60,359 nt of DNA. Origin: an uncultured virus (IMG/VR IMGVR_UViG_3300007542_004333) (lineage: Duplodnaviria; Heunggongvirae; Uroviricota; Caudoviricetes). The stretch lies in IMG/VR virus record IMGVR_UViG_3300007542_004333, one strand, 5' to 3'. Below the pieces are notes generated by a model. It was not told the origin of the DNA and searched no databases. It saw only the letters and a program-made list of their open reading frames with translations. Positions 46,593-60,359 of the stretch are shown here, in pieces (the stretch's first letter is position 1; each line of letters opens with the position of its first letter). Made by a program: the position numbers and the translations under genes.

Positions 46593-47009
46593 TTGCTCTT
46601 GGAACATCCCTGGTTATTTTACTTTTTGTTTTTTATATTTGGCTACTATACTTGCAAAGTGTTTTATTTTCTTGTTGCAGTACAAAAAAGTATTCAAATT
46701 TTAAAGCTGACACAAGCAGTAGGACTACTTATTATTATAAAAGCATTAGAAAGTATGCATTATGCTCATAATTATCGGATCTTTTTGCTTGGTCCAACCG
46801 CAAGTGAACAAAACAAAGATGCTTATAATGCTCACTTTGAAGCCGAAATTAAAAGCTTTACTTCAAAGTACATTCGTGAGATAATTGATTTACATGGAGG
46901 ATTCTTTTCTCATCTTGTTGAGTTCAAGAATTGGGAAGAAGCCATGATTTACCTTGAAGATAAAAAAGATAACGTCATTGAATTCATGACTAAGGAGAAC
47001 AATGATTAA
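46593..47009 (+). CDS. Membrane-anchored hypothetical protein
   Basis: N-terminal hydrophobic helix. Confidence 0.6.
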   Translation: MLLEHPWLFYFLFFIFGYYTCKVFYFLVAVQKSIQILKLTQAVGLLIIIKALESMHYAHNYRIFLLGPTASEQNKDAYNAHFEAEIKSFTSKYIREIIDLHGGFFSHLVEFKNWEEAMIYLEDKKDNVIEFMTKENND

Positions 47010-47619
47010 CAAAGTTAAAAGCAAAATCAAAAACTTGCTATCAATAAACGAAAACGATCAAAGAATCGTGTTGTTCAACCCTGGAGAAAAAGAGCCTGAC
47101 TTAAGAGTAGTGGGACTTTTTTCAGATGTAGTTGACGAGAAAGTATCAGAGATTGTAACAGGTCTTATTTACATGAATGAAGTTAACAAGGCATCAAAAG
47201 AAAAAAGAGATATTGATTTTTATATTTCAACATACGGTGGTAACGCTGACGATATGTTTGCTCTTTATGACATTATGAAAGTAATCGAGCAAGATACTGA
47301 TATCAGCACTATCGGCATGGGCAAGGTTATGTCTGCTGGAGTTCTTATCTTAGCTGGCGGCACAAAAGGCAAGCGAAAGATTGGTCGCAACTGTAGAGTT
47401 ATGTTACATTCTGTTATTGCTGGCAATCATGGATCTTTACATTCTCTTGTAAATGAAATGGAAGCTATTCAAGACCTTCAAGAACTTTATATTGATCGGC
47501 TTGTTGAAGATACAAAAATGACCAAAAAACAACTAAAAAGACTGCTAGAACAAAAAGTTAACATCTATTTATCAGCAGAGCAAGCAGTTGAATATGGGAT
47601 TGCTGATATAATCGTGTAA
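47002..47619 (+). CDS. clpP: ClpP-family protease subunit
   Basis: FYISTYGG, MSAG, RVMLH and YLSAEQAVEYGIAD. Confidence 0.9.
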   Translation: MINKVKSKIKNLLSINENDQRIVLFNPGEKEPDLRVVGLFSDVVDEKVSEIVTGLIYMNEVNKASKEKRDIDFYISTYGGNADDMFALYDIMKVIEQDTDISTIGMGKVMSAGVLILAGGTKGKRKIGRNCRVMLHSVIAGNHGSLHSLVNEMEAIQDLQELYIDRLVEDTKMTKKQLKRLLEQKVNIYLSAEQAVEYGIADIIV

Positions 47620-47631
47620 GGAACTTTGTAA

Positions 47632-50049
47632 ATGAATAGATATCTTTTTGAAATGATGTTGCGTTTAATTAACGAACAATTGGATGCTCAAGAAGGCTTA
47701 TTAACCGAGGTGGTATCTGATCTTCCTAGTCGAGTATCACTTACATTCGGTCCCAATGATGATGTGCGAGCGTCGGTAACTGCAGATGGCAACTTTAAGG
47801 AATCAACCATTGACGCTCAGCCGCGTCTCGCCCAAATCGGTCAAGTCGTCAGACAAACGGCGTCTTACAGCCCCCCCCAACGAGGACAATACGAGCAAAG
47901 GCGTGAAGCAGCATTCAACGCTTTTATGGATTATTTGAAGAAGGTTCCAGATCCCCCCAACCTTGATATCGGCGCGGGAAGAGAAAACGCTGTATTTGTG
48001 GGCAGAGTGGTTCAGAGCGGGTCGCAACAAGTTCCGTTCACACGAGATAACATCAAGAAGCTGCCAACCTGGCACCGAATTATATTTCCAATAAAATACA
48101 TCAAGCCGAAGGGATATGCCAATCATATTGGCAATCTTATCAAAATAGGCAACATGGGATCACGCCCCAAAAGAAATGCTATTATTAATAATCTTATGAA
48201 AAACGGCGGCGTAACCTATGAAGGCTGGACCTTTAAAATAGATCCTAATCATGGTCTTCTCGACATCAAGACCGACGAAGGAGATTTTAATGTAGGAGGA
48301 GTCTTAACAGTCTCTTCAGATACTGAAGATATAAACGAAAGATTCAATATAACATTTAGCGGAGGTTCAAGCGACAGCAATGTATCTGAATTGTTCGAAG
48401 GAAACTTGCTCATAGCACTTAATGGGCACACAAGCTCATTCCCGCCACAAGCAGAAAACCTTGGAATTTATCAAGTGGAAAACAAAAGGGGACAACTAAT
48501 AGATATATTTATTGGGGATCCAGGGTGGCAGAACATTGCTAATGACGTCATTGCAAATATCACAGGATCGGGTCTGGGCACGGAACTTGCTAATCATGAA
48601 CTATACGATAAACCAGGGACTGCAGACAAGCTAACTGACATTTATAAATTTTATAAAGGAATTACAAAAGGCGAAGGGGCTCCCGCTACTAGAACACCAA
48701 AAACAGACATAGCAAGTGATGATAATGATAAAACTCTAAGAATATCAGTTAAAAAGAAAGGAGCTTCACTTTTAAGTCCAGAGTTCTCCGAAACAAAAGC
48801 TTTTATGGCTATTGCTTTGGGGTTTACCCGGAACAATCAGCTTTTAAATGATCCATTATTTAATAATGTTAAAAATGCGCTTGAATCGCCGCCCCGGAGG
48901 TTCGCGCGTCGGAGGTCGGTGTCTTTGAGATCGGCGCCCTCCAGATCGGCGTCCTTGGGGCGCTGGGCGGCGGCGGGTTCCCAACCCCAGAGGATCCCGC
49001 CTCCGAGATCCGAATCCGTGGCGAAGGGCAAAAACGCTTTGAATGAGATATATGATTATATAAATATTCATACTCTAAAGATCGATTTCAAAAAAGCTTT
49101 CTTATTGGAAGCCATGACCGGAAACCACAAGTTTCCCTCTGGAAGCGTAGCTATCGCTAACAGATTATTATCTTGGGACGAAAACGGAGCAGGTTCTTAT
49201 TATGATATAAACGATTGGGTTAATAAAAACTACAACAACGTAACATTTAGAGCCAGAAGTAGAGGTCAAGGTCGATCAGTAGGGCTTGGAATAGAGCAGG
49301 GAACAGCCTCCTTACAAGAATATGCAGAAATATCAAATGAAGAAATAAATGATCGATCATTTGAAATCGCAAATGATCTTATAGACTTTTTAAATATACT
49401 CTCCGAATCAGAGCAATCAGATGTTAACACGGTCAAAAGCTTTTTTTCCAAATTCATTGATAGCATTAACTCTAAAGAAACTGGTGAGTCAAAAGAAGAT
49501 CTTGCGAGAGAAACAGCACAAAAAACCAAAGACATGCTCGGAAGAGAAACGCGAGGCAAAAAAGCGATTATAGCTGGATTGCTGGCACTCGTATTGAGTG
49601 TTGGCACCAATGTCTTTAATAATATAGAAAACATTGTTGATAATCCAGAAAATGCAATAGAAATGGTAGAAGATAATTTACAGTCGCCCGCTCCTTCAGA
49701 AGAATCCATAAAAATACCATATGAAAAAATTAATGAATTTATATTAACTGCAATAGGTTATTCATTAAAAGAAGTAGATCCAGGGTCTAATACTGTTACA
49801 ATCGGATATCCAGATGAAGAACAAGAAAGAATTCTGCAAGCAATGGTTCAAGAAATGCTCGGCTCTCCTGGGAAACCAGAAGCACCAGTTCAACAAGATA
49901 CAGAGACAGAAATTTCTGATAATGTTGTTGCTTTAGATCCAAAAGATGTTAAAAGTACTAAAGACGACGAAGAAATAGAAGTTGATGTCAAAGACGACGA
50001 ACAAGAGGAGCAAGAGGAGCAAGAGCAGAATAACACGGAGGAAACTTGA
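47632..50049 (+). CDS. 805-aa protein with possible PD-(D/E)xK nuclease-like core
   Basis: ELFEG...TPKTDI...ISVKK; hydrophobic helix and acidic tail; function inferred. Confidence 0.5.
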   Translation: MNRYLFEMMLRLINEQLDAQEGLLTEVVSDLPSRVSLTFGPNDDVRASVTADGNFKESTIDAQPRLAQIGQVVRQTASYSPPQRGQYEQRREAAFNAFMDYLKKVPDPPNLDIGAGRENAVFVGRVVQSGSQQVPFTRDNIKKLPTWHRIIFPIKYIKPKGYANHIGNLIKIGNMGSRPKRNAIINNLMKNGGVTYEGWTFKIDPNHGLLDIKTDEGDFNVGGVLTVSSDTEDINERFNITFSGGSSDSNVSELFEGNLLIALNGHTSSFPPQAENLGIYQVENKRGQLIDIFIGDPGWQNIANDVIANITGSGLGTELANHELYDKPGTADKLTDIYKFYKGITKGEGAPATRTPKTDIASDDNDKTLRISVKKKGASLLSPEFSETKAFMAIALGFTRNNQLLNDPLFNNVKNALESPPRRFARRRSVSLRSAPSRSASLGRWAAAGSQPQRIPPPRSESVAKGKNALNEIYDYINIHTLKIDFKKAFLLEAMTGNHKFPSGSVAIANRLLSWDENGAGSYYDINDWVNKNYNNVTFRARSRGQGRSVGLGIEQGTASLQEYAEISNEEINDRSFEIANDLIDFLNILSESEQSDVNTVKSFFSKFIDSINSKETGESKEDLARETAQKTKDMLGRETRGKKAIIAGLLALVLSVGTNVFNNIENIVDNPENAIEMVEDNLQSPAPSEESIKIPYEKINEFILTAIGYSLKEVDPGSNTVTIGYPDEEQERILQAMVQEMLGSPGKPEAPVQQDTETEISDNVVALDPKDVKSTKDDEEIEVDVKDDEQEEQEEQEQNNTEET
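48887..49029 (-). other. GC-rich foreign insert encoding antisense pentapeptide repeats
   Basis: 103/143 nt G+C by hand count; minus strand reads ADLEG-ADLKD-TDLRR-ANLRG. Confidence 0.8.
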
Positions 50050-50807
50050 AATCACCACTACGCTACCCAGGTGGCAAAACTCGTGCAGTAAAGCATTTAC
50101 TGCCTTACATTCCAAATAAAGATATTTGCGCTCCATTTTTAGGTGGAGGTTCATTAGAGTTAAAGTTATCTCAAACAAGAAAAGTATGGGGATACGATGC
50201 GTTTTATCCTCTTTACAACTTTTGGGATTGTTTACTGAACAACAAGCAAGAGCTTGTAGAGGCTGTTACAAGAAATCATCCAATAAACAAACAACTTTTT
50301 TCTGCTCTCAGAGAAAAACTAAAGAACTACAACAAACAAGACGGCAAGTCAATTGAAATGGCTGCTGCTTATTTTGCAGTTAATCGCTCTTCTTTCTCTG
50401 GAGCAACTTTATCTGGTGGTTATTCACAGCAAGCGGCTGATGGTCGGTTTAACGCAAACAGCATTAAGCGCTTATCTGACTTTAGCGCGCCTAACTTAAA
50501 AGTAGGCTTTAAAAGCTTTGAGGAGAGCATTAAAGACCATGAAAAAAGTTTCTTGTATCTTGACCCTCCTTATTTTTTAGAAGCCAAAAGCAAGCTATAC
50601 GGAAAGAACGGAGACATGCATGAAAACTTTGATCATGATTTGTTGCATTCGCTCTTGACAAGTAGAAAAAACTGGTTATTATGTTATAATGATTGCGATT
50701 ATGTTCGTCAGCGATATTCAAACTATGAAATAGTGCAAGCCGAATGGGCGTATGGCATGAATAAATCAAAGCAATCAAGCGAACTATTTATTATTTCAAG
50801 AGGTTAA
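50046..50807 (+). CDS. dam: Dam/D12-class N6-adenine DNA methyltransferase
   Basis: SPLRYPGGK, PFLGGGS and YLDPPY. Confidence 0.9.
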   Translation: MKSPLRYPGGKTRAVKHLLPYIPNKDICAPFLGGGSLELKLSQTRKVWGYDAFYPLYNFWDCLLNNKQELVEAVTRNHPINKQLFSALREKLKNYNKQDGKSIEMAAAYFAVNRSSFSGATLSGGYSQQAADGRFNANSIKRLSDFSAPNLKVGFKSFEESIKDHEKSFLYLDPPYFLEAKSKLYGKNGDMHENFDHDLLHSLLTSRKNWLLCYNDCDYVRQRYSNYEIVQAEWAYGMNKSKQSSELFIISRG

Positions 50808-50808
50808 A

Positions 50809-52398
50809 ATGAGTCATAACATGGTCTTCGCAAGTGAAGACAAACTACAACAAAAAGTTATTAAAGGTGCCAACATATTGGCTGATAATGTTGCTTCAAC
50901 GCTGGGACCGAGAGGAAGAACAGTTCTTCTACAAGAAAAAGGTAAAACTCCTTTTGTTAGCAAAGACGGTATTACCGTTGCTCACTTTGTTCATTTAGAC
51001 GATCCATTTGAAAACGCTGGCGCGCAGTTAATTAAACAAGCAGCAGTAGAAACAAACGGAACGGCTGGGGATGGAACCACAACATCAACAGTTCTTGCTC
51101 GCTCTATTCTTGTTGAATCGCAAAGATATATTCTTGCTGGCTCTTCTCCAACTGAACTGCAACGTGATTTACAGACAGTTGCAAATGAAGTTGTAGCAAA
51201 CCTTTCAGAGCTTACTTATCCAATCAAAAGTATTGAAGACATTAAGCACATCGCTACGATCTCTGCTAATAATGACGAGGCGATTGGTGACTTGATTTCT
51301 CTTGCTGTTGATCGAGTGGGTCAAGACGGCGCGATTACAATTGAAGAATCAAGATCTATTGAGACAAGCTTAGATGTTGTTGAGGGCTTTCGCTTTGAAG
51401 GCTCGTATGCAGCAGGAGCTTTTATTAATGACGAGCGCCGTGCTATTATGTATTATGAAGAGCCTTTGTTTTTAATTACAGATCATAAGCTTGAAAGTGT
51501 ATCTCAAGCAGATCCAAATAGTATTCTTTCAATTCTTCAGGTTGCGAATAGAACTGGACGACCAATTATTTTTATTGCTGAAGAAATTGAAGGTCAAGCG
51601 CTCGCTTCTTTAATTTACAACGCAGTCAAGCGCAAAGAAACAAATGCAGGTATTCGCGCTGCTGCAATTAAAATCTCTTGTTATGGAGAAGAGCGCAGAG
51701 CAATAATGGAAGATTTAGCGTTGTCTGTTGGTGCGACATTTATTACTCGTGAAAGTGGTATGCAATTAAAAGACGCTAAACTAGAGCACCTGGGATCCGC
51801 AAAGTCAATTGAAAGCACAATAGAAAAGATTACTATTGTTGGCGGAACTGGTGATTATGAGCGTATTGAAGAACAAATCGGTACGTTTAAAGCTTTGATT
51901 GAGCAAAGCAGCGATTTATCTTTCTGCGAAAGAATACAAGATCGCATTGTAAGGCTGTCGTCTGGTGTTGCCGTTATTAAAGTTGGCGGCTCAACAGAAG
52001 TTGAAATGATAGAAAGAAAGCATAGAATTGAAGATGCGCTTGAAGCGGTAAGATCAGCACAAGAAGAAGGAATCGTTGGTGGTGGTGGAACTGCTTTGCT
52101 ACGCGCAAGCTTGAGACTACAAGGTGACTCTGAAGCACACGCTATTATTAAGCGTGCTTGTCAAGCTCCAATCCGTAAAATGGCTGAAAACTCTGGTTTA
52201 TCTCCAGATATTATAGTTAAAGATGTTCTTGAATCTTCTGATCAAGAAGGTTGGGATTTTAAACAAAATCGCTTGTCAAACATGCTTGAGAGTGGTATTA
52301 TAGATCCAGTAAAAGTCTCAAAGACGGCTTTACTAAACGCAGTTAGCTGTGCTGGTACGCTAATCACAACTAACTACGGCATTATACAGGTAGAGTAA
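50809..52398 (+). CDS. groEL: Chaperonin GroEL
   Basis: TLGPRGR, KDGITVA, AGDGTTT, EEGIVGGGG and GIIDP. Confidence 0.95.
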   Translation: MSHNMVFASEDKLQQKVIKGANILADNVASTLGPRGRTVLLQEKGKTPFVSKDGITVAHFVHLDDPFENAGAQLIKQAAVETNGTAGDGTTTSTVLARSILVESQRYILAGSSPTELQRDLQTVANEVVANLSELTYPIKSIEDIKHIATISANNDEAIGDLISLAVDRVGQDGAITIEESRSIETSLDVVEGFRFEGSYAAGAFINDERRAIMYYEEPLFLITDHKLESVSQADPNSILSILQVANRTGRPIIFIAEEIEGQALASLIYNAVKRKETNAGIRAAAIKISCYGEERRAIMEDLALSVGATFITRESGMQLKDAKLEHLGSAKSIESTIEKITIVGGTGDYERIEEQIGTFKALIEQSSDLSFCERIQDRIVRLSSGVAVIKVGGSTEVEMIERKHRIEDALEAVRSAQEEGIVGGGGTALLRASLRLQGDSEAHAIIKRACQAPIRKMAENSGLSPDIIVKDVLESSDQEGWDFKQNRLSNMLESGIIDPVKVSKTALLNAVSCAGTLITTNYGIIQVE

Positions 52399-60040: not shown

Positions 60041-60359
60041 ATGAATCTATCAAACGGTTGGTTTCAAAACTTTAACTTTCAAGACTCTGACTTGAAAGAA
60101 GCTGACTTTTCAAATAGCGACCTGACCCGCGCTAACCTGACCCGCGCTAACCTGTCTGGCGCTGACCTGATTGGTGCTAACCTGTACGCCGCTAACCTGT
60201 CTGGCGCTGACCTGATTGGTGCTAACCTGATCAGCGCTGATCTGTACGCCGCTAACCTGATCAACGCTAACCTGAGCCACGCTAACCTGAGCCACGCTAA
60301 CCTGAGCCACGCTAACCTGAGCCACGCTTACCTGACCGGCGCTTACTTGAACCACGCTA
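60041..60359 (+). CDS. Pentapeptide-repeat protein, truncated by the window end
   Basis: MNLSNGWFQNFNFQDSDLKEADFSNSDLTRANLTRANLSGADLIG...; 15-bp tandem repeats GCTAACCTGnnnnnn. Confidence 0.9.
   Translation, partial: MNLSNGWFQNFNFQDSDLKEADFSNSDLTRANLTRANLSGADLIGANLYAANLSGADLIGANLISADLYAANLINANLSHANLSHANLSHANLSHAYLTGAYLNHA

Follow-up and report, generated by a model that had tools for sequence, protein, structure and literature searches.

An antisense fragment of a high-GC pentapeptide-repeat gene likely replaces a helical link in a predicted restriction-type nuclease of an uncultured T4-like phage

UvsX of phage T4 is reported to join broken ends via homologies of 3–4 nt, yielding deletions (PMC8262927), and illegitimate recombination is described as rare next to homology-driven exchange (PMC3945230). 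MspI, HinP1I and HhaI are described as monomeric 4-bp cutters (PMC7026639), and an enzyme of family PF02086 is reported to be able to methylate GGCC (PMC6105098). The DNA analyzed here is a stretch of 60,359 nt (the window) from an uncultured virus of the Caudoviricetes (IMGVR_UViG_3300007542_004333). It belongs to a large T4-like phage, with PHROGs matches for the major head protein, tail sheath and DNA polymerase, and the phage record is rated 61% complete.

The gene of interest is predicted to encode an MspI/HinP1I-like restriction-type nuclease, and is flanked by genes for ClpP and a D12-class methyltransferase. Its main features, with positions in the window, are:

47632..50049, plus strand: host gene, 805 aa, predicted MspI/HinP1I-fold restriction-endonuclease-like protein with a nuclease domain at ca. 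aa 245–560 (ORF, AlphaFold2, Foldseek, VIA)
48385..48756, plus strand: putative catalytic residues E256, D359, S372 and K374, all upstream of the patch described below and intact; invariant across all 16 aligned sequences
50046..50807, plus strand: D12-class DNA methyltransferase (PF02086, E 1.3e-31), overlapping the stop of the host gene; likely partner of the nuclease, which it adjoins in 8 of 14 loci

Pfam, NCBIfam and PHROGs held no useful family for the host gene. Its nearest homologs are 29–40% identical, and the nuclease domain had no detectable homolog in cultured phages. The family assignment comes from predicted structure. An AlphaFold2 model of aa 237–560 had a pTM of 0.73, and Foldseek with the predicted domain matched MspI at E 2.5e-3 and HinP1I at E 3.4e-2, neither below 0.001. 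The top three matches in a VIA structural search were MspI (Z 9.8), HinP1I (Z 8.1) and HhaI (Z 6.3), above unrelated rows; the MspI match to the predicted model covers 206 residues with an rmsd of 4.4. The N-terminal part of the gene (window 47780–48080) has a G+C content of ca. 0.5 and is missing from most homologs – it may be an older acquisition. N-termini rich in L-x-E occur in this protein (window 47632–47715) and in other ORFs of the contig, and are presumably akin to those of the capsid-packaged internal proteins of T4-like phages; by this analogy the nuclease may be virion-borne.

Within the nuclease domain lies a short block of very different composition. The parts of this patch and its flanks are:

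48871..48886, plus strand: left flank, copy 1 of an imperfect repeat (KNAL, at a predicted helix end; from sequence and model)
48887..49029, unstranded: the patch of apparently foreign DNA, 48 host-frame codons, 143 nt, 72% G+C
48891..48950, minus strand: four clear pentapeptide units (A/T-D/N-L-x-x) in the donor frame, PF00805 27.6 bits
48951..48983, minus strand: middle 33 nt with no pentapeptide likeness (identity to the core units 5–7 of 15, the chance level); the host-frame W here aligns with the W-N motif of the family
48984..49013, minus strand: two additional degenerate pentapeptide units, 10/15 and 11/15 nt identical to the core units (chance 0.011 and 0.002)
49030..49044, plus strand: right flank, copy 2 of the imperfect repeat (KNAL, inside a helix homologous to the G-D-D-A-L of relatives; from sequence, alignment and model)

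The initial annotation had reported 143 nt at 72% G+C in AT-rich DNA, and a composition scan returned the same figures: 48887..49029 has 72.0% G+C, more than any other 143-nt segment of the window (mean 0.39, sd 0.06), and is also the GC-richest 143-mer across the 122,359-nt contig (mean G+C 0.38). The patch occupies codons 420–467 of the 805-codon plus-strand ORF. Third positions are G or C in 38 of its 48 host-frame codons (79%), vs a GC3 of 0.32 in the remaining gene, and none of the 102 ORFs scanned has a stronger local GC3 spike (p 1e-9). Next in strength comes a leucine-rich-repeat-like ORF (by eye) with high GC3, located outside the window (G000 C1 53084–53923).

As the same annotation had it, the plus-strand ORF stays open at 805 aa and gains an Arg/Ser/Pro-rich loop: 26 of the 48 residues gained are R, S or P, and the net charge of the peptide is +11. 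The opposite strand of GC-rich DNA is often without stops and encodes an Arg/Pro/Ser-rich peptide (antisense shadow ORFs, overprinting). The open host frame of the patch is unremarkable, because five of its six frames are stop-free, 37% of shuffled patches have no stop in the host frame, and 121 of 349 windows in the phage's own repeat genes are stop-free in the equivalent antisense frame.

The minus strand had been said to read as a pentapeptide-repeat peptide, with G or C at the third position of 38 of its 47 codons. Both the peptide and the count were reproduced, and the minus frame matches PF00805 (Pentapeptide) at 27.6 bits (E 2.1e-6; cut-off 20.2), over just 21 of the 40 profile positions, which falls short of the run of units that a beta-helix needs. 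Among the five stop-free frames tested, the minus frame alone matches Pfam. A 15-nt periodicity is present in the patch, with autocorrelations of 0.45 (lag 15) and 0.42 (lag 30), vs 0.22–0.35 for the other lags. G+C by codon position (of 47) is 37/26/38 in the minus (donor) frame vs 26/37/38 in the host frame, and the donor-frame pattern is the usual one for a high-GC gene. The plus and minus frames of the patch share third codon positions, so GC3 cannot tell the strand; a mirror plus frame has the same codon-position pattern as the minus frame, and it is the Pfam match that separates them.

The phage has five pentapeptide genes of its own, read from a record that reaches beyond the window, in a genome rated 61% complete. 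They use GCT-AAC/GAC-CTG codons and have 11–20 units each. The claim that the codons of the patch are unlike those of the phage's own pentapeptide gene held against all five paralogs: the patch codons differ, and the longest word in common with the 19.7-kb stretch that carries the paralogs is 11 nt. These five dispersed genes (window 60041–60359; L050 1195–16843) have the N-terminus in common and resemble one another at the C-terminal end, and their repeat arrays are shuffled. The sequence GGCGCC has 2 sites in the contig, where ca. 10 are expected, and one of them is inside the patch. An origin of the patch in a foreign, high-GC pentapeptide-repeat gene is well supported at the sequence level, because of the donor-frame Pfam match, the codon-position G+C, the codon mismatch to the phage's own paralogs and the rare GGCGCC site, with 39% of the genome unseen. 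The capture had also been called recent. The third positions are unameliorated, as would be expected, but all copies of the phage that were seen are near-identical and give no date.

Other explanations for a GC-rich block within a gene were considered. Read in its own frame, the patch is a 64-aa ORF with a TTG start; no Shine-Dalgarno-like run was seen by eye and promoter matches were at chance level, leaving an expressed antisense mini-gene unsupported. A self-splicing intron or structured RNA is also unsupported, with 0 Rfam matches at E<=1 and a folding z of −0.23. As for signs of a diversity-generating retroelement, there is no second copy of the patch in the contig that could be a template repeat, no variation within the patch, and no match to the reverse transcriptase PF00078 in two incomplete records of the phage.

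The donor was sought in several collections. An exact 31-mer of the patch had 0 matches in 185,579 GTDB genomes. A peptide-pattern scan gave 600 stretches, none of them confirmed, and two degenerate donor patterns gave 3 and 0 matches, the 3 of which do not extend. With blastn against phages and plasmids the best E-value was at least 0.1, although several top matches are pentapeptide genes; a protein search with the donor-frame peptide returned repeat proteins of a generic kind, all of which lack the middle 11 residues. Five related phage records had 0 donor matches, and no host assignment was obtained via the capsid protein. The host DNA named in the initial annotation is one possible donor, and the patch is thus at most a potential clue to host identity; it is equally conceivable that the donor is another phage or a mobile element. 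Identifying a matching donor would indicate which host, or which co-infecting element, goes with this uncultured phage clade. The idea that the fragment was cut at GGCC ends is unsupported – at its left end the patch more probably continues into a GAT that the flank has too. The absence of GGCC inside the patch has a chance of 0.07.

A compositional edge this sharp could also mark an assembly chimera or a laboratory construct. Coverage across both junctions was checked in contigs, not raw reads. At least half of the gene's sampled words are carried by 20 of the 24 listed runs (16 studies, years 2017–2025); all 24 are environmental or unlabelled, none is listed as RNA, 7 are flagged as possible sources of the record, and 7 runs were compared across the patch. 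In run X8, which is not flagged as a source, both junctions are in one 361-nt contig with a depth of 704 and no variant letters. In run X9, also not flagged, both are spanned by one variant-free 796-nt contig. Runs X1, X4 and X5 span the patch as well, all three being possible sources, while in X10 and X12 the patch is partly uncovered and not bridged, which proves nothing. The IMG/VR and JGI contigs are 100% identical across the gene, and the two sequence variants of the protein cluster differ outside the patch only. Despite the sharp edge and the two runs without bridging, the junctions bridged in X8 (ca. 700x) and X9, and the recovery of the same sequence from different studies and years (these two runs, the three possible-source runs, IMG/VR and JGI), leave a chimera or construct with a practically negligible probability.

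The initial annotation took the patch for a foreign piece read antisense and in frame, and on this point it stands: the donor frame is on the minus strand and the host ORF stays open. A simple insertion with target duplication is not supported, since ca. 15–17 ancestral residues are missing at the site in the comparison with homologs. The alignment to homologs lacking the insert, proposed as a check, instead points to a net replacement. From the S-V-K to the E-A-M-T-G motif there are 122 residues in the patch-bearing protein. This spacing is 79–160 in the 38 homologs that have both anchors, from 56 homolog sequences examined (for P0016 it is 87, the regex value of 72 being a mis-hit), and 87–103 in 11 clade relatives (support 95/91). 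Excising the patch and one KNAL would give a spacing of 69, below the shortest measured homolog (79). In the alignment, 15–17 residues lie between the two KNAL-equivalent positions in relatives and 48 in the patch-bearing protein, and the first KNAL aligns with one helix end while the second aligns with a separate G-D-D-A-L helix of the family.

Structural models are consistent with the loss of an ordered segment. The model of relative P0009 has a helix, a short helix and a helix at the site, with pLDDT block means of 81–94. In the model of the patch-bearing protein, aa 422–453 form a 32-residue loop with pLDDT below 50, and the next helix starts at aa 459, within the patch. The S-K-x-x-W-N motif, kept in 8 clade homologs, is removed by the patch. 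Minor contigs of run X8 (depth 17 and 11) have 28–30 nt in common with the gene at 48796–48825 and rejoin it at 49098 and 49143. Computed from the lengths of the records rather than the letters between, the two minor alleles are 96 and 84 nt shorter (28–32 codons) and in frame, the 84-nt figure assuming that the common piece starts the record. These minor relatives diverge from the patch allele over the whole 270-nt region. The family spacing, the lost link, the mapping of the helices and the shorter X8 alleles thus point to a net replacement of a helical link, not a clean insertion.

Two things stand against replacement: no direct ancestral allele was seen, the nearest homologs being 29–40% identical and the X8 alleles divergent throughout, and the flanks form a repeat. 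The two KNAL flanks, which start at 48871 and 49030, have 14 matches with gaps and abut the GC block exactly. Their score is reached by 0.7–0.9% of random genome pairs and 0.14–0.35% of within-gene pairs (p 0.001–0.009), and the distance from copy 1 to copy 2 is 159 nt, a multiple of three. Such a repeat, unlikely by chance, would fit a duplication-type insertion. The near-duplicated flanks of the initial annotation are therefore borne out as an imperfect repeat beyond chance, but the copies are not identical and map to separate helices of the family. One history that would accommodate the repeat has two steps: the link is deleted, leaving a short allele with one KNAL, and a clean insertion follows, whose 15-nt target duplication later decayed. 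The position of the repeat at both ends of the GC block, the likeness that continues out of frame, the rarity of equal scores and the 159-nt distance speak for it. However, the short allele would have a spacing of 69 vs 79 in the shortest of 38 homologs; no short-allele joint is listed at ca. 700x, though contigs drop rare variants; and the flank copies differ by two changes, yet the patch retains a GC3 of 79%. No empty-site allele with one KNAL was found in 7 runs, 38 homologs and contig scans, in which there was also no close allele, and the viral scans and a metagenome scan covering 51 of 64 parts gave 100% copies or distant homologs only, among the matches listed. The two-step history is considered unlikely. 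A combination of deletion and duplication, whether in a single event or in two, accounts for both the evidence for replacement and the flank repeat.

The middle 33 nt could be seen as something other than captured DNA – ancestral linker that was retained or matched by homology, with capture guided by, or selected for, a W-N-A-A-G-S likeness. In the host-frame reading, 7 of 14 residues agree with the P0009 linker in an ungapped comparison (the best among 9 homologs, p 0.0008–0.003), the W kept by 8 clade homologs is among the matched positions, and the matched segment is exactly the part without pentapeptide likeness. But the test of this resemblance was post hoc; scored against a profile built from 8 linkers of the family it has p 0.30, and summed over 9 homologs p 0.14–0.39. 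P0009 is no closer to the protein than other relatives are (39% vs 37–40%), and G/C third positions in the middle part (12 of 14) are unlike phage codons. The resemblance to the P0009 linker is probably chance, and a retained or homology-matched linker as the source of the middle part is quite improbable.

The preferred reading, to which a probability of ca. 0.6 is assigned, is that a 143-nt antisense piece of a pentapeptide gene replaced ca. 16–20 codons of the helical link in a one-off illegitimate repair, and that the result is likely a tolerated surface loop. The event would have begun with a break or a stalled fork in the nuclease gene, inside an infected cell, and the gap would have been patched with available high-GC DNA from the host chromosome or a co-infecting element. 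Joining would have used only a few bases of homology, as the RecA/UvsX-like protein of the phage may be able to do (the RecA-family gene has E 3e-35), and ca. 15 nt of the flank probably ended up in two imperfect copies. Against such a route, the UvsX products reported for T4 are deletions and not captures (PMC8262927), and illegitimate recombination is rated as rare (PMC3945230). Survival of the allele could be due to a net change that is a multiple of three, a stop-free frame, and a site that follows the catalytic lysine where differences in length are tolerated; the next helix is predicted to be lengthened by the final eight foreign codons.

Other parts of the host gene vary as well. In its C-terminal part, 315 nt (window 49351–49665) are 80% identical to a gene 61 kb upstream (L007 1510–1824), which suggests module exchange between phage genes. 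Minor contigs of run X8 with a depth of 71–82 leave and rejoin the gene at 47709–48208, 48423–48529 and 49352–49712. Because X8 shows these other allele swaps, the host gene is considered a variable mosaic with several swappable segments. A more radical reading makes it a hypervariable cassette rebuilt with scraps of the high-GC host DNA that it probably degrades, in which the antisense scrap was selected for re-supplying the lost tryptophan link and the start of a helix. This is very doubtful; if true, a gene read backwards would have served as raw material for an entirely new, working structural element.

With the S-K-x-x-W-N motif removed, nuclease activity may be impaired. The patch could even have crippled the enzyme and been kept since loss or weakening of the nuclease is neutral or useful to the phage. 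A helix conserved in the clade is gone, 11 net positive charges have been added, and the gene is already mosaic, as the 315-nt stretch in common with another contig gene shows. Yet the reading frame is unbroken, the putative catalytic residues are retained along with the C-terminal motifs, the spacing in the family ranges over 79–160, and the cluster's two sequence variants differ outside the patch only. A crippled nuclease is accordingly rated as a rather remote prospect. The replacement allele is probably tolerated, and the protein is presumably expressed and may retain activity.

The gene order ClpP, nuclease, D12 methyltransferase, GroEL (window 47002–52398) is kept across the clade; in the clade loci the nuclease is ca. 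30% identical and the methyltransferase often 72–75%. The nuclease domain is found in 14 of the 24 homolog loci examined, and the methyltransferase adjoins it in 8, is missing from the slot in 3 and falls beyond the contig end in 3. GGCC has 7 sites in the contig vs ca. 146 expected, and is avoided in most clade loci (L010–L025), including loci without the methyltransferase. CCATGG, CGATCG, GAGCTC, GGTACC and GTCGAC have zero sites in 122 kb. The missing sites are possibly a fingerprint of restriction systems of the host or the phage. Nuclease and methyltransferase may form a restriction pair directed at GGCC, which should be taken as a lead rather than a result. The clade-wide occurrence of a putative MspI-fold nuclease with a D12 methyltransferase in GGCC-avoiding genomes offers a candidate restriction system of phage origin that can be put to the test.

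The locus would represent a natural sub-gene capture in a lytic-type phage, with unrelated DNA from the wrong strand fixed within a conserved enzyme domain in samples of 2017–2025. It offers a snapshot of new protein sequence arising from foreign DNA, in a single event and in a protein of predicted function, and makes it possible to test directly if an evolved helix can be substituted by a random antisense peptide. Titles and abstract openings of the literature gave no direct precedent for the in-frame capture of a backwards-read fragment.

Compared to known systems, the predicted fold and the adjoining methyltransferase gene are like those of MspI, HinP1I and HhaI, and the spacing of the D...x-x-K motif is like the SD-X11-EAK of HhaI (PMC7026639). 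The phage protein differs in being only 9–13% identical to these enzymes, in its long N- and C-terminal extensions, in being phage-encoded and in the predicted status of its activity and recognition site. With regard to the PD-(D/E)xK motif, E256, D359 and K374 are invariant, but S372 is found throughout the family where the second acidic residue is expected. Like PF00805 proteins, the patch has A/S/T-D/N-L-x-x units, four clear and two degenerate, with a 15-nt period and up to 86% peptide identity over 21 aa; unlike them, it is a mere fragment, interrupted by 11 non-repeat residues and antisense in another gene. It resembles antisense shadow ORFs and overprinting in being GC-rich, with a stop-free opposite strand and an Arg/Pro/Ser-rich peptide, but here the antisense reading sits within a conserved protein domain and overlaps no working gene. 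The reports on T4 UvsX minihomology (PMC8262927) and on relaxed phage recombination (PMC3945230) describe the use of homology that is very short or imperfect, as is proposed here for a phage with a RecA-family gene; the products described there are deletions or exchanges between homologous phage sequences, whereas here an unrelated, backwards-read fragment would have been captured in frame. Phage mosaicism, short-homology repair and open antisense frames in GC-rich DNA are all known parts, and it is their combination inside a conserved enzyme domain that is uncommon.
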